Assembly: GCA_039090665.1 (NCBI GenBank)
Contig: JAWCSL010000001.1
Location: 32,001-96,000, forward strand
DNA: 64,000 bases
From: Candidatus Aenigmatarchaeota archaeon
Lineage (GTDB): Archaea; Aenigmatarchaeota; Aenigmatarchaeia; CG10238-14; SCSR01
Direction: 5' to 3'
Every line of letters starts with the position of its first letter. Position 1 is the first letter of the stretch. Shown one piece after another: positions 6,705 through 15,628 of this stretch. The translations under genes were made by a program, and so were the position numbers. Below the pieces are notes generated by a model. That model did no database searches. It saw only the letters and a list, made by a program, of their open reading frames with translations, and was not told the DNA's origin.

Positions 6705-7603
6705 ACTGAGTTATATTATTTATTTGCTCATGGGTCTTGGCGTTGGGCTTTTGATCAAGTCAAACAAGACATGAGATGAAATAGCCTATTCTGACTCATG
6801 AGATATTGGCCTGAAGTGAAAGAGCTTCAGGTAGGTTGATTGGTGAAACCTAGAGGTAGGGCCCGCCAATTCTGGTTGATCCCGCCAGAGGCCACTGCTA
6901 TCCGGCTTCGACTAAGCCATGCGAGTCGAGAGGGGAAAGCCCTCGGCGCACTGCTCCGTAATACACAGTCAACCTACCCTTAGCTGGGGGATAATCCCGG
7001 GAAACTGGGGCTAATACCCCATAGGTGCTAGGTACTGGAAGGTCCTAGCGCCGAAAGCTCCGGCGGCTAAGGATGGGACTGTGGCCTATCAGCTTGTTGT
7101 GGAGGTAAAGGCTCCACAAGGCGATAACGGGTACGGGCTATGGAAGTAGGAGCCCGGAGATGGACTCTGAGACATGAGTCCAGGTACTACGGTACGCAGC
7201 AGGCGCGAAAACTTCTCAATGCTCGCAAGAGCGAAGAGGGAAGCCGGAGTGCCCTTGCTCTGCAAGGGCTTTTGCGGTCTGAAAACGGGACCGCGAATAA
7301 GGGGTGGGTAAGACGGGTGCCAGCCGCCGCGGTAATACCCGCGCCCCGAGTGGTGGCCACGATTATTGGGCCTAAAGCGTCCGTAGCCGGTCTGGTAAGT
7401 CCTCAGTGAAATCCTCTAGCAAACTAGAGGGCTTGCTGGGGATACTGCCAGACTTGAGACTGGGAGGGGGCAGGGGTACTCCCAGGGTAGGGGTGAAATC
7501 CTGTAATCCTGGGGGGACCACCTGTGGCGAAGGCGCCTGCCTGGAACAGGTCTGACGGTGAGGGACGAAAGCTAGGGGAGCGATCGGGATTAGATACCCC
7601 GGT

Positions 7604-7682
7604 ACACGAGGTTGGGTATCTTCTGATTTAAAGATGAAGAAAAATCCCAACTCAAGCTAGGATTTCCTAACTCGTGCGGGAA
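7604..7682 (+). ncRNA. 16S BHB intron 1 (79 nt, after ~U801), D'/C' guide-like
   Basis: CCCG/CGGG helix, GTA and AAA bulges; removal restores CCCCGGTAGTCC. Confidence 0.92.
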
Positions 7683-8082
7683 AGTCCTAGCCGTAAACGA
7701 TGCCCGCTTGGTGTTGCAAGCTTCTCGGGAGCTTGCAGTGCCGAAGCGTAGGTGTTAAGCGGGCCGCCTGGGGAGTACGCCCGCAAGGGTGAAACTTAAG
7801 GGAATTGGCGGGGGAGCACACAAGGGGTGGGCGTTGCGGTTCAATTGGATTCAACGCCGGAAATCTTACCAGGGCCGACGGCAGGATGAAGGTCAGTCTG
7901 AAGGGCTTACCAGACGAGCCGAGAGGTGGTGCATGGCCATCGTCAGCTCGTACCGTGAGGCGTGCGCTTAAGTGCGTTAACGAGCGAGACCCACACCCCA
8001 TGTTGCTAACTGCTTCTCCGGAAGCAGTGCACTCATGGGGGACCGCTGGCGATAAGCCAGAGGAAGGAGTGGGCGACGGTAG

Positions 8083-8170
8083 ACAGGTAAAAGGCTCAAG
8101 ACCGATTCATGTGAAAAAAAGATGAGCATGAATATCGCCCAGAGCCGTACATGTCTTTTACCTGACCGAA
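8083..8170 (+). ncRNA. 16S BHB intron 2 (88 nt, after ~1197), H/ACA-like fold
   Basis: CGGT/ACCG helix, AGA and AAG bulges; removal restores GACGGTAGGTCCGTATG. Confidence 0.92.
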
Positions 8171-8451
8171 GTCCGTATGCCCCGAATGCCCTGGGCCACA
8201 CGCGACGCACAATGCGCGCCACAATGGGATGCGACCCCGAAAGGGGAAGCAAAGCCCCTAAAAGCGCGCTCAGTTCGGATCGAGGGCTGTAACTCGTCCT
8301 CGTGAAGCTGGAATCCCTAGTAAGCGAACGTCATCATCGTTCGCTGAATACGTCCCTGCTCCTTGCACACACTGCCCGTCAAGCCAATCGAGCGGAACTC
8401 CATCGAGGCTTGCGATGAGCAAGTCGAGTTGGAGTTCTGTGAGAGGGGCTA

Positions 8452-8557
8452 ATCTTGGGGGTCCAGAAAAAAATAATATGAAAGAATTGGCTTGACTCTG
8501 ATGTGATGATGAGATGGAGGTGAGTTGATTGCTTGTATGGACCTCCCAAGAGCCTAA
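8452..8557 (+). ncRNA. 16S BHB intron 3 (106 nt, between A1492 and A1493) containing a four-box C/D sRNA
   Basis: GGGC/GCCT helix, TAA and AAA bulges; removal restores GGGGCTAAGTCG. Confidence 0.92.
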
Positions 8558-8832
8558 AGTCGCCACAAGGTAGCCGTACGGGAACGTGCGGCTGGATCAC
8601 CTCCTTACGTGCAACCCTACCTCAGGCACCATAAACAACCCTACCTGAAAGAATTTTCCTTTTTATCAGTACCAAAGTAAAAAAAATTAAGCTCGAATCT
8701 TTACCATTATCCTCAAATTTTTCAATTCTTTTCTTAAACTGTTTTCAAAAAGCTTGTGTTAACTAAAAACTAAAATAAATGAGAGAAAAATAGCTACCGA
8801 GCTTATAAAATAATAAAAATTGGGAAACCATT

Positions 8833-11972: not shown

Positions 11973-12037
11973 AGCGATGAGCTTTGTCTTTCTCTGCTGA
12001 CAAAAAAGATGAAGATGTGGACACCTTGTGAGCAAGC
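11973..12037 (+). ncRNA. Putative box C/D sRNA A in 23S leader
   Basis: ATGAGCT-guide-CTGA-linker-ATGAAGA-guide-GTGA spacing; guides match 23S only with G-U pairs. Confidence 0.55.
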
Positions 12038-12080
12038 TGCATGCAACTCCTTATTGAAAGAATAAGGGGTGAAGAGTGGA

Positions 12081-12141
12081 GGTTGATGATAACATTTATT
12101 CGCCTGAAAAAAGATGAAGAGCGAACTGTCTATTTGAAACC
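12081..12141 (+). ncRNA. Box C/D sRNA B in 23S leader
   Basis: GGTT/AACC terminal stem, TGATGA, CTGA, ATGAAGA, TTGA; 8-bp guide to 16S 7293-7300 and 10-bp guide to 23S 15193-15202. Confidence 0.8.
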
Positions 12142-14181
12142 ATAAGATGACACTACCACAGGATCAAGGAGGTCACTAAGGCCTAACAAGCTGACCCCAC
12201 TTGGTGGATAGCTTGGCTTCGGAGCCGAAGAAGTACGTGGCAAGCTGCGATAAGCCTGGGGTAGCCGCATGCAGGCGTAGATCCCAGGATCTATGAATGC
12301 GAATCGCTGGCTTCGGCCAACTCCGAAAGGAGGGGGAACGCGCTGAATTGAAGCATCTTAGTAGGCGCAGGAAAAGAAATCAAATTGAGATGCCGTTAGT
12401 AGGGGCGACCGAAAGCGGCAGAGGGCAAACCGAACTGGTTGGCGAAGAGCCAAACAGGATGTGGAGTTGTAGGACCTGTGTCCTTCCTATCCTAGCCGAC
12501 CTGAAGTCTGCTGGAAAGCAGCGCCAAAGAGGGTGATAGCCCCGTAAGGGAAGGCTAGGAGGAAGATGGCAGGTATCCTGAGTACCATTTCCTGGATGGG
12601 AAGTGGGAAGCTGGGTGAATTAACATCCAACCCTAAATACTCCCGAAGTCCGATAGCGAACTAGTATGGTGACAGAAAGCTGAAAAGCACCGCGAAAGCG
12701 GGGTGAAAAGAGCTTGAAACCAAGTGGGGATAGTCAGACACGGCCCGGAAGGTGCTCCTTCGAATGAAATCCGAAAGGAGAGTAAGAGAAGGAGCTTACA
12801 GGGTCGTGTCGTCCGTGCGGAAACACGGGGCAGGGAGTTTGTCTCAGTGGTGAGGTTAACTTGCTTTCACAAGGTAGCCGGAGCGAAAGCGATTAGCCCG
12901 CAACTGTTCTTTATGGACAGTGAGGGGCAGGGTATGAAAGTGCCTGAAATCACTGGGACAAGACCCGAAGCCAGGCGATCTAACCCTGGGTAAGGCGAAG
13001 TCCCTCGAAAGGGGGATGGAAGCCTGCTACCGGTGCTGAGTTACAAATCGCTCGGGTGACCTGGGGTTAGTGGTGAAAAGCCTAACGAGCCTGGCGATAG
13101 CTGGTTCCTCCCCAAATGCACGTCAGTGCAGCCTGGTCGGAGGTAGGCAATGGGGTAGAGCTACTGATTGGAAGGTCAAGGACCGAAAGGTTCAGCCTTC
13201 CTGTCAAACTCCGAATCCATTGCCACCTGAGAAGACCGGAGTGAGGGTGCTGGGGTAAGCTCGGCACTCGAAAGGGGAACAACCCAGCCTAGGGTTAAGG
13301 TCCCTAAATGCTAGCTAAACGCTGAAGGGTGTCTGAACCCTCAGACAGTAGGGCTGTAGGCTTAGAAGCAGCCATCAGATAATAAGTGCGTAACAGCTTA
13401 CCTACCGAGGGTTCGGGCCCCGAAAATGGAAGGGACTAAGCTAGCTACCGATACCCTAGACCGCGAAAGCGGGGGTAGGGAGGCGTCCTGCATGGGCAGA
13501 AGCCTCTGCGTGAGCAGGGGTGGACCGTGCAGGATTGAAGATCCTGCCGAAAGTAACAGCAAAGTTAGGTGAGAATCCTAACCACCTGAAGCCTAAGGGT
13601 TTGCCAGCAATGTTGGTCAGCTGGCAGTTAGCCGGTCCTAAGGGTGCTCTTAACCGAAGCACTCGAAAGGGAAAGCCGTTAATATTCGGCTGCCATGGGG
13701 ATACGTGCGGCGACGCAAGCCAGTTTTCCGACGCTTCGGGATAGGCAGACGCAAGCTAACTGCCGAAGTGAGCGGAGTCTCTTAATGAGGAGAAGCTCAT
13801 GAAGGCAGGAATGGCTCCTCGTATGAGGAGTTCTGCTGATTCCTGGAGCCCGTGAAAAGGAAAACTGGAAGGATTCCCCATGACCGTACCGAGAACCGAC
13901 ACAGGTAGGCTTGCCGAGAAGGCAAAGGTGTGTTGGGAGAACCCAGCCTAGGGAAATCGGCAAGTTGGCCCCGTATCTTCGGTAGAAGGGGTGCCTGTTC
14001 TCTCGCAAGGGAGAGCAGGTCGCAGTGACAAGGGGGAAGCGACTGTTTAACAAAAACGCTGGAGACCGCAAGTCCGAAAGGATGTGTACGGTCTCTGATG
14101 CCTGCCCAGTGCCGGTGTGTGAAAGCCCGGTTCAACGGGAAGAAGCCCCGGCAAACGGCGGCGGTAACTCTGACCGTCGTA

Positions 14182-14231
14182 ACTCAAGGCGGTCATTTGA
14201 TTTAATGATATTCCGCTGCCTTGGGCGGCAT
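14182..14231 (+). ncRNA. 23S BHB intron 1 (50 nt, after ~A1927), D'/C' guide-like
   Basis: GTCG/CGGC helix, TAA and ATA bulges. Confidence 0.88.
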
Positions 14232-14360
14232 AAGTAGCGTAATCCCTTGCCGTTTAAATGACGGCCCGTCTGAACGGCTTAACGACTTCCCCACTGTCCT
14301 GGGCTGGGACCCAGTGAACTCGCCTTTCCGGTGAATAGGCCGGAGACCTCCTGTGGGAAA

Positions 14361-14391
<31 letters not shown>

Positions 14392-14545
14392 GTGTTGTGG
14401 TAAGGTTGTGACTGCATAGAGTAGGTAGGACTCGCTATTAGGCTGAGGCTTCGGCCGAAAGCTGAGAGGAAAGTGTAACACTACCCTTTCGCAACCTTAC
14501 CGCTAACTCGAAAGAGGACAGCACCAGATGGGCAGTTCGGCTGGG

Positions 14546-14631
14546 AGTCTAGAAGTCTAAATGAGGAGTCCCTTAAGTTATGATTTTTTATGATTAAGGG
14601 CATACGAACCGAAAGGCTTCTAGACCAGCAA
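14546..14631 (+). ncRNA. 23S BHB intron 2 (86 nt, P-loop, after ~G2252) containing a four-box C/D sRNA
   Basis: GCTG/CAGC helix, GGA and AAG bulges; removal restores GCTGGGGCGG. Confidence 0.93.
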
Positions 14632-14686
14632 GCGGTACGCCCTCGGTAAAGGATCGAGGGCGCCCAAAGGTCAGCTCATCCGGGTC

Positions 14687-14775
14687 ATGGTAGAGTCTAG
14701 TAAATGATTGGACCGTTCCAGAATGATCTTAATGATTTCTGAGGTAGCTGATGAGAATAGGCTCTACCACCCGCA
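14687..14775 (+). ncRNA. 23S BHB intron 3 (89 nt, after ~C2306) containing a four-box C/D sRNA
   Basis: CGGG/CCCG helix, TCA and CAA bulges; removal restores CGGGTCAGAAATCC. Confidence 0.92.
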
Positions 14776-14919
14776 AGAAATCCGGAGTAGAGTGTAAGCG
14801 CAAAAGCTGGCCTGACTGGATTCCGCAAAGCGAGGAATCCAGCCGCGAAAGCGTGGGCTAGCGATACTTCGGTTCCTCTTAATGGGGGCCGGAGGTATCA
14901 GAAAAGCTACCTCGGGGAT

Positions 14920-14973
14920 AAACTAGCTAGGGCTGATTAAATTATTTTTCTTCATATCTAGCTAGTTCCCTAA
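14920..14973 (+). ncRNA. 23S BHB intron 4 (54 nt, after ~U2449)
   Basis: GGGG/CCCT helix, ATA and AAA bulges, AACTAGCTAG/CTAGCTAGTT stem. Confidence 0.88.
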
Positions 14974-15001
14974 AATGGGCCCGTGGCCGGCGAAAGCCCA
15001 C

Positions 15002-15072
15002 TGCTCGAAGGGGTTTTTCGTCCCAAAGATAGCGAGCCTCGGGTTCTGAACTCGAGCCCTTCGCGCGGGTAA
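15002..15072 (+). ncRNA. 23S BHB intron 5 (71 nt, after ~2477)
   Basis: GCCC/GGGT helix, ACT and AAA bulges; removal restores AGCCCACATTGACCC. Confidence 0.9.
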
Positions 15073-15628
15073 ATTGACCCGGCGCGTTGGTGCGTCGATG
15101 TTGGCTCCCCCTCTCCTGGCCGTGCAGCAGCGGCCAAGGGTACAGGTGCCCACTGGTTAAAAGGGGACGCTAGCTGAGTTCAGAACGTCGTGAGACAGTT
15201 CGGTCGCTATCTACAGGAGGTGCTGGTCGTCTGACCGGAAGGAAGGGTTAGTACGAAAGGAACACCCTTCCGTGGCCTCTGGTCTACCGGTTGTCCATTT
15301 GGCATCGCCGGGCAGCCAAGCCATACGTGGATAAGAGCTGAATGCATCTAAGCTCGAAACCACCCGGAAAAATAGACGACCACTCTTGCTACTGGTGCGC
15401 AAGCATCGGTGGCAAGACGAAGGCCCCTGTAGACTACAGGTTTGATAGGGGAGAGGTGTAAGCCTCAAGCTTTCGAGCGAGAGGCGAGCCTGCTCCTACT
15501 AAAAGCCTGAGTTGTTAGGCCTTGATAAGCTCCTTGATCCTGTGGTAGTGTGAAAAAATTCTGATTCTCCCAAAAATATATACTAGAGTAGAGAAAACTT
15601 ATTTAATTGTCACTACATAGTAGTTATT

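Follow-up and report, generated by a model that had tools for sequence, protein, structure and literature searches.

A spliceable intron in the 23S rRNA P-loop of a DPANN archaeon probably encodes a double-guide box C/D RNA for 16S rRNA

Introduction

Archaeal rRNA introns are usually viewed as selfish elements or empty remnants. Whether they give rise to functional non-coding RNAs is a question left open in the accessible part of a 2013 review (PMC3608112). A mini-intron in the 23S rRNA gene described here raises this question at a functionally critical rRNA site, the P-loop. A sequence-only reading of the locus had proposed that the intron encodes a dual guide that acts in trans and across subunits, on 16S rRNA. 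We examined this proposal in the window (the whole 64,000-nt stretch of DNA analysed), in the source genome (620 kb, 34% G+C, 90.6% complete) and in related genomes and metagenome contigs. DNA of the window was found almost solely in hot-spring metagenome runs.

Results

Organization of the rRNA genes

Three inserts in the 16S rRNA gene and at least two in the 23S rRNA gene (Table 1) make both genes longer than their Rfam models. Between the 16S gene and the tRNA-Ala/23S unit lies an opposite-strand gene for an H+-translocating pyrophosphatase, so that the two rRNA genes are unlinked despite being adjacent and their rRNAs are almost certainly separate transcripts. Any guide carried by a 23S intron must therefore reach 16S rRNA in trans. 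On this point the sequence-only reading was right, and the case is stronger than it had stated.

Table 1. Features of the locus and associated genes. Positions refer to the window unless a prefix is given.
Feature	Position	Strand	Basis or remark
16S rRNA gene	6869-8605		archaeal, rRNA model match
16S target of D' guide	7793-7803	+	predicted 2'-O-methylation at U7797 (E. coli 912)
16S target of D guide	8172-8182	+	predicted 2'-O-methylation at U8176 (E. coli 1203)
H+-translocating pyrophosphatase, 672 aa	8833-10851	minus	Pfam E 5e-246; between 16S and tRNA-Ala/23S unit
23S rRNA gene	12179-15522		archaeal, rRNA model match
Splice motif, 5' half	14537-14546	+	sequence and fold; cut after 14545
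Bulge-helix-bulge intron, 86 nt, 23S P-loop	14546-14631	+	Rfam 23S alignment, splice motif, RNA joints
Closing stem, 5' strand	14547-14557	+	11-bp outer helix of splice motif
Box C, AUGAGGA	14561-14567	+	sequence, alignment of 10 homologues
D' guide, 12 nt	14568-14579	+	11 bp with 16S 7793-7803; UCCCUUAAGUU invariant in 10/10
Box D', AUGA	14580-14583	+	invariant in 10/10; A1 pairs with U6 of box C'
Linker, UUUUUU	14584-14589	+	3-6 nt in relatives, sequence varies
Box C', AUGAUUA	14590-14596	+	UGAUUA in 10/10; first base A in 7, G in 3
D guide, 12 nt	14597-14608	+	positions 3-11 and 1 pair with 16S 8172-8182
Box D, CCGA	14609-14612	+	CUGA in 7/10 homologues, CUAA in 2
Closing stem, 3' strand	14615-14625	+	11-bp outer helix of splice motif
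Splice motif, 3' half	14626-14635	+	sequence and fold; cut after 14631
L30e-type gene, 94 aa	C11:28733-29011		sole good L7Ae-family match in the source genome; between rpoA2 and nusA
EndA (splicing endonuclease)	C12:23832-24110
RtcB ligase	C14:31340-32644

A bulge-helix-bulge intron in the P-loop

Alignment to the Rfam 23S model revealed an insert of 88 positions after model position 2344; mapped on E. coli 23S, the intron site lies between G3 and G4 of the P-loop GGGG. The limits of the intron were derived from a canonical bulge-helix-bulge motif by reading the sequence against the fold. All of its elements are present: an exon helix (14537-14539 with 14633-14635), a central 4-bp helix (14540-14543 with 14626-14629), two 3-nt bulges (GGA, 14544-14546, and AAG, 14630-14632) and an outer helix (14547-14557 with 14615-14625). 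Both ends are presumably cut after the second nucleotide of the bulge, which yields an intron of 86 nt; it contains no ORF. The resulting exon junction, GGCUGGG/GCGGUAC, is identical to E. coli 23S and to the Rfam consensus, and the universal P-loop sequence is restored. It falls between G2250 and G2251 of the aligned 2902-nt E. coli 23S, which would be G2252/G2253 with the GGGG at 2250-2253 in standard numbering. Pairs of the exon and central helices are unchanged in all ten homologues described below, and the outer helix doubles as the terminal stem of the putative guide RNA.

Contigs from three RNA runs join 14545 directly to 14632, a joint absent from the DNA run. In one hot-spring RNA contig both 23S introns are missing, and over 128 nt its sequence departs from the exons of the window by one letter and one gap. 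These joints fit splicing at the predicted sites. They are no proof of it, because intron-less relatives share the springs and RNA libraries can hold DNA, either of which could give the same joint; an intron-less relative in the same communities was seen at the end of one DNA contig. Cover by RNA contigs was zero over 14552-14614 in three runs, and assembled contigs cannot reveal a small or circular RNA.

Box C/D architecture of the intron

The coordinates that the sequence-only reading had assigned to boxes and guides all proved correct. Box C (7 nt), a 12-nt guide, box D' (4 nt), a 6-nt linker, box C' (7 nt), a second 12-nt guide and box D (4 nt) follow one another in a 52-nt core, with a UGA in box C, a GA in box D, the exact 12/12 spacing of archaeal C/D RNAs and a short C'/D' linker. 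The layout 7-12-4-(3-9)-7-12-4 arose in 25 of 200,000 shuffles of the intron.

In the source genome the boxes AUGAGGA and CCGA are off consensus (RUGAUGA and CUGA), which we counted against the guide reading. They are more than degenerate boxes: the deviations compensate one another, and box D is CUGA in seven of the ten homologues. In a C/D kink-turn, position 5 of box C faces position 2 of box D, and position 6 faces position 1. The first of these pairs is intact in all ten sequences, as G-C in the source genome (AUGAGGA/CCGA), A-U in eight and G-U in one, and the second is G-C throughout. Between C' (AUGAUUA) and D' (AUGA) the U-U pair is kept, and the usual G6-C1 pair is replaced by U6-A1 in 10/10. 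The D box CUAA in two homologues and the C box AUGUAGA in one speak against the guide reading, since each is without the second of the tandem G-A pairs in the kink-turn.

No Rfam family scored above threshold on the P-loop intron. The best matches were to CD-box families (E 0.65-1.7), which made up three of the four sub-threshold hits and aligned box to box. A strict regular expression for the canonical double-box pattern (RTGATGA ... CTGA), which is not a full C/D search, found no instance in the source genome.

Complementarity to two sites in 16S rRNA

Both perfect matches to 16S rRNA claimed for the guides were reproduced. Positions 1-11 of the D' guide pair with 7793-7803 over 11 bp, and positions 3-11 of the D guide pair with 8174-8182 over 9 bp, with position 1 paired in addition. 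In each duplex the fifth nucleotide from D or D' is paired. The reading had placed the predicted 2'-O-methyluridines at about 912 and 1203; our alignment to E. coli 16S gives precisely 7797 = 912 and 8176 = 1203 for these candidate sites, and 7800 = 915. As had been noted, the second site lies just past 16S intron 2, which interrupts the gene between E. coli 1197 and 1198, and U8176 is 6 nt beyond its 3' end. The numbers 912 and 1203 and the helix names are absent from the available portion of the main text of PMC4644070.

We compared these matches with several chance expectations. Within the window, the 11-mer AACTTAAGGGA has two occurrences, one in 16S (7793-7803) and one on the strand opposite the guide (0.10 matches expected by chance, two matches reached in 1 of 100 shuffles), and so has the 9-mer CGTATGCCC, in 16S (8174-8182) and opposite the guide (0.02 expected, 0 of 100 shuffles). 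In all 620 kb of the genome, 16S is the one place where the 11-mer target occurs; the D guide 9-mers are not unique and also match three unrelated places. When the guides were shuffled and compared with 16S and 23S together, the D' guide reached 11 bp in 10 of 3000 trials and the D guide 9 bp in 115 of 3000, and both matches were never reached together (0/3000). A reversed-guide control over half-units genome-wide gave 11 bp in 1 of 610 and at least 9 bp in 23 of 610. Chance is thus a poor explanation of the layout combined with the double 16S match. Other 10-11-bp matches to rRNA from the half-unit scan, again not a full C/D search, were rejected, since they lacked a second box pair and lay in coding-like context.

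Pairing of the D guide differs somewhat among genomes. In the source genome the uninterrupted duplex is just 9 bp long and position 2 is mismatched; in G030, G146 and contig C29 of G005, the D guide forms 10-11 contiguous bp with the 16S of the same genome (10-12 bp in relatives). The guides also have a potential partner within the intron: CCCUUAA of the D' guide is complementary to UUAAGGG at the junction of C' and the D guide, and together with the near-palindromic D' and C' boxes this gives a predicted internal hairpin at 14570-14600 (predicted energy -42.8 kcal/mol, z -4.06). Such a hairpin could be a competitor of protein binding, and some of the conservation could be due to the hairpin itself; possibly it is a self-masking form of the free RNA.

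Homologous introns in relatives

The sequence-only reading had pointed to homologous introns in relatives as a check, and nine further distinct homologues keep both guides and all four boxes. The set of ten, with the window, comprises five genomes and five metagenome contigs taken from the matches listed. The exact guide and D' pattern is present in 5 of the 370 genomes of the class, which belong to three genera of one family, and always inside a P-loop intron. Metagenome homologues were sought with a 15-mer pattern spanning guide and D'. Among the matches listed, most were chance hits in unrelated bacteria, and a locus was retained only if it had the second guide too; 11 of the 12 filtered matches listed were real. 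Locus L276 was discarded as a chance 15-mer match.

Distribution of the intron is patchy. A 23S stretch was available in 40 of 60 related genomes, and four of the 40 (the source genome, G005, G017 and G030) match across the P-loop intron. Among 29 related 23S loci that include the site, four have an intron of 83-86 nt, one (in G036) has an intron of ~660 nt and 24 have none. The ~660-nt intron (locus L021, contig C11 of G036, from another family of the order) contains a LAGLIDADG-like ORF and is inserted 2 nt downstream of the mini-intron site, which marks the P-loop as an intron hot spot. A similar ORF-bearing intron is present in the 16S 3' domain at locus L047. No free-standing copy of the P-loop guide was found in intron-less genomes of the family by a pattern search allowing two mismatches, because matches were as numerous as in the reversed control and the three one-mismatch matches, on examination, lay in unrelated sequence.

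Among the ten homologues the linker varies in length and sequence, and guides and boxes are nearly invariant. The D guide GGGCAUACG is kept in nine; the tenth has a C-to-U change that retains a G-U pair with the target. Nothing within the intron pairs with its six bases CAUACG, which 9/10 sequences nonetheless retain. Overall, the bounds of conservation follow the guide-target duplexes, ending where the duplexes end, and not the internal hairpin. In the structure that we specified for the ten sequences, 209 of 209 cells are paired and six pairs have changed on both sides. None of 500 shuffles was as good, and controls in which the structure was slid along the alignment gave 19-46% paired. The closing stem alone has changed on both sides at 5 of its 11 pairs and remains 100% paired in the ten homologues.

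Both 16S targets are intact in all four operons that have the intron and a readable 16S. The sequence-only reading had further suggested covariation between the guide and an unusual base in 16S. This argument is weak, because the base, G915 (in AAGGGA), is clade-wide: it occurs in 26 of the 27 16S loci of the order that show the site, with or without the intron. Guides and targets are moreover invariant, with no compensatory change from genome to genome, and we rejected per-genome covariation as evidence. The guide fits the 16S of its lineage.

Some 16S targets border on introns. In the window (16S intron 2, 8083-8170) and in contig C29 of G005, a 16S intron ends 1 nt before target 2, and in the latter (loci L328/L334) another 16S intron follows directly after AACTTAAGGGAA, target 1. 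The G005 bin, 1.7 Mb in size and with several rRNA operons, is probably a mixture. In G030 and G146, both of which retain the two guides, neither target site has a 16S intron.

Protein machinery

Most of the enzymes required are encoded in the source genome. Genes for fibrillarin and Nop5 adjoin each other on contig 3, and EndA and RtcB were located (Table 1). L7Ae was not found in the 90.6%-complete assembly, where the only good match to its family is an L30e-type gene that lies between rpoA2 and nusA, as L30e usually does. A separate L7Ae (E about 1e-30) and an L30e-type gene are both present in each of the 24 relatives searched. Most likely, the absence of L7Ae reflects the missing tenth of the assembly.

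C/D layouts elsewhere in the rRNA genes of the order

The second 23S intron (~14687-14776) contains, from 14704, the boxes and spacers ATGATTG, 12 nt, ATGA, 5 nt, ATGATTT, 12 nt, ATGA. The D guide of this intron forms 9 bp with 23S 14905-14913, and evidence for covariation of this guide with its target is equivocal. For its D' guide there is no rRNA target of at least 8 bp, and complements in the genome with up to two mismatches are scattered chance matches. An intron occupies this site in 21 of 26 related loci, with a strict 12/12 C/D layout in 18 of the 21.

Within the third 16S intron (~8453-8558), a C/D unit at 8478-8528 has the canonical C' box ATGATGA. One guide matches 16S 8378-8388, on the decoding-centre strand, over 11 bp and would direct 2'-O-methylation to A1408; the other forms 8 bp with the 3'-terminal anti-Shine-Dalgarno sequence. 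This unit occurs in 14 of 28 related loci of the 16S 3' domain, in introns at three or more insertion points, which suggests a mobile or repeatedly captured cassette. Introns 1 (7606-7683) and 2 of 16S contain isolated C- and D-like motifs (CTGA, GATGAAG, ATGAGCA), and no complete 12/12 layout was found in them by eye or by regular expression.

Upstream of 23S, the leader that follows tRNA-Ala (11977-12137) holds two or three C/D-like units just before the processing stem. That at 12086-12137 has a 10-bp match to 23S 15193-15202, and the others are without a good target. Genome-wide we counted 43 relaxed C/D layouts, seven of them in the rRNA region and all seven on the sense strand. Intron-hosted C/D RNAs look like a habit of this lineage, and the layouts in two other rRNA intron families therefore raise the prior for the P-loop case.

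Discussion

What, then, is the P-loop intron? We consider it likely, from the sequence and its comparison with relatives, that it is a spliceable double-guide C/D sRNA, released by EndA, probably circularized by RtcB, and directing methylation of U912 and U1203 of 16S rRNA in trans. Splicing endonuclease would cut the 3-nt bulges at 14545/14546 and 14631/14632, where the motif is in place. By analogy with known archaeal introns, RtcB would then join the exons, restoring the GGGG-CGG of the P-loop, and probably close the intron into a circle. The 11-bp outer helix of the splice motif would become the terminal stem of the guide RNA, the C/D boxes would form a kink-turn and the C'/D' boxes a kink-loop, and these may recruit L7Ae, Nop5 and fibrillarin. 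Each 12-nt spacer could then pair with the separately transcribed 16S rRNA, so that the nucleotide paired at the fifth position from box D' or D (U912 or U1203, respectively) would be presented to the active site of fibrillarin and 2'-O-methylated. One guide RNA for 16S would thus come from each 23S precursor that is transcribed and spliced.

Other explanations attribute less, or something different, to the same features. The intron might pair with 16S, as a C/D-type RNP or an antisense RNA, in order to assist folding or assembly as a chaperone and not to guide methylation, for example by holding the 912 switch region and helix 34, or by timing the splicing of neighbouring 16S introns. The mismatch at position 2 of the D guide in the source genome could be read in this way, and so could the proximity of targets to 16S intron sites in some operons (target 2 in the window, both targets in contig C29 of G005). 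A function tied to those introns is hard to reconcile with G030 and G146, which keep both guides with a 16S that is intron-free at both sites; moreover, the spacing puts position 5 within both duplexes, as methylation requires, and fibrillarin is encoded. We regard a chaperone as unlikely. It is very improbable, in our estimate, that the locus is an ordinary structured rRNA intron whose interior is kept as a long hairpin for splicing or stability, its C/D likeness and 16S matches being coincidental. TGA motifs are common at 34% G+C, as the 43 relaxed layouts illustrate, one reversed-guide control likewise reached 11 bp, and the D' guide can fold onto the junction of C' and the D guide. Such coincidence would nevertheless have to produce a layout seen in 25 of 200,000 shuffles and a double match seen in none of 3000. 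It would also leave unexplained the pairs that compensate from box to box, the conservation of guide bases outside the hairpin up to the duplex ends, and the recurrence of the C/D layout in two other intron families of the order.

As a further alternative, the intron could be a relic in decay, a once free-standing C/D sRNA gene that was captured into, or turned into, a mobile intron and no longer guides in the source genome. That genome has the least canonical D box of the set, CCGA, and the weakest pairing of the D guide, and the patchy distribution of the intron at a hot spot also occupied in G036 would suit a mobile element. Decay is difficult to square with guides that are invariant in ten distinct sequences from three genera, and the changes particular to the source genome preserve pairing, of G5 in box C with C2 in box D and of guide position 1 with its target. 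This alternative therefore seems quite improbable to us, and a functional double guide remains our preferred reading.

If the P-loop intron is such a guide, archaeal rRNA introns gain a selectable function, and EndA together with RtcB offers a ready route to circular C/D sRNAs, whose origin and role are left open in the accessible text of PMC7994747. The economy of placing a snoRNA in an intron would then exist outside eukaryotes, in a 0.6-Mb genome with unlinked 16S and 23S genes. More tentatively, it is possible that rRNA genes throughout this DPANN order come with modification guides of their own: introns, and possibly the 23S leader, would be the main and perhaps the only home of C/D sRNAs, EndA and RtcB would deliver them as circles, and a 16S guide supplied by 23S would couple modification of the small subunit stoichiometrically to transcription and splicing of the large-subunit RNA. 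Were this wider view true, intronic snoRNAs would have a counterpart in archaea that might serve as a model of their evolution, and the persistence of ORF-less mini-introns at critical rRNA sites would be explained.

Comparison with known systems

The closest precedent comes from Euryarchaeota (Haloferax volcanii; sR50 of Pyrococcus), in which the tRNA-Trp intron is a box C/D guide according to the parts of PMC7994747 and PMC7714728 available. This intron, credited there to Clouet d'Orval 2001 and Singh 2004, is the only one in archaea known to have a function once excised. Like it, the P-loop intron would be a bulge-helix-bulge intron that is also a double-guide C/D sRNA, released by the endonuclease and acting in trans. 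Whereas the tRNA-Trp guide is hosted by a tRNA and modifies that host (C34 and U39), the P-loop guide is hosted by 23S and has its targets in the separately transcribed 16S.

Free-standing double-guide C/D sRNAs of Pyrococcus, Sulfolobus and Pyrobaculum, as far as they are described in the accessible text of PMC4644070 and PMC6009581, resemble the P-loop guide in core size, 12-nt spacers, position-5 rule, rRNA targets and protein set. They are independent genes or lie at gene ends, whereas the P-loop guide is intronic and has the A/U-rich boxes AUGAUUA/AUGA with compensating changes. The only intron hosts of archaeal C/D sRNAs named in the available portions of PMC6009581 and PMC7994747 are tRNA introns. 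In the open-access literature, which was our scope, no paper turned up that describes a C/D guide hosted by an rRNA intron in archaea.

As with the intron-encoded C/D snoRNAs of vertebrates (PMC7994747, in the part accessible), the guide would be a by-product of splicing, its output tied to transcription of the host gene. Unlike eukaryotic intronic snoRNAs, it resides in an endonuclease-cut intron of the rRNA gene itself and is probably released as a circle. With archaeal rRNA introns such as that encoding I-DmoI in Desulfurococcus 23S (PMC3608112, in the part available), it shares a bulge-helix-bulge motif at a functionally critical rRNA site. Where those introns carry a homing-endonuclease ORF, the P-loop intron has no ORF and would carry a guide RNA as its cargo. 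The novelty lies in the host, in the cross-subunit arrangement in trans and in the box variant; guides of this class, and the way they act, are known.
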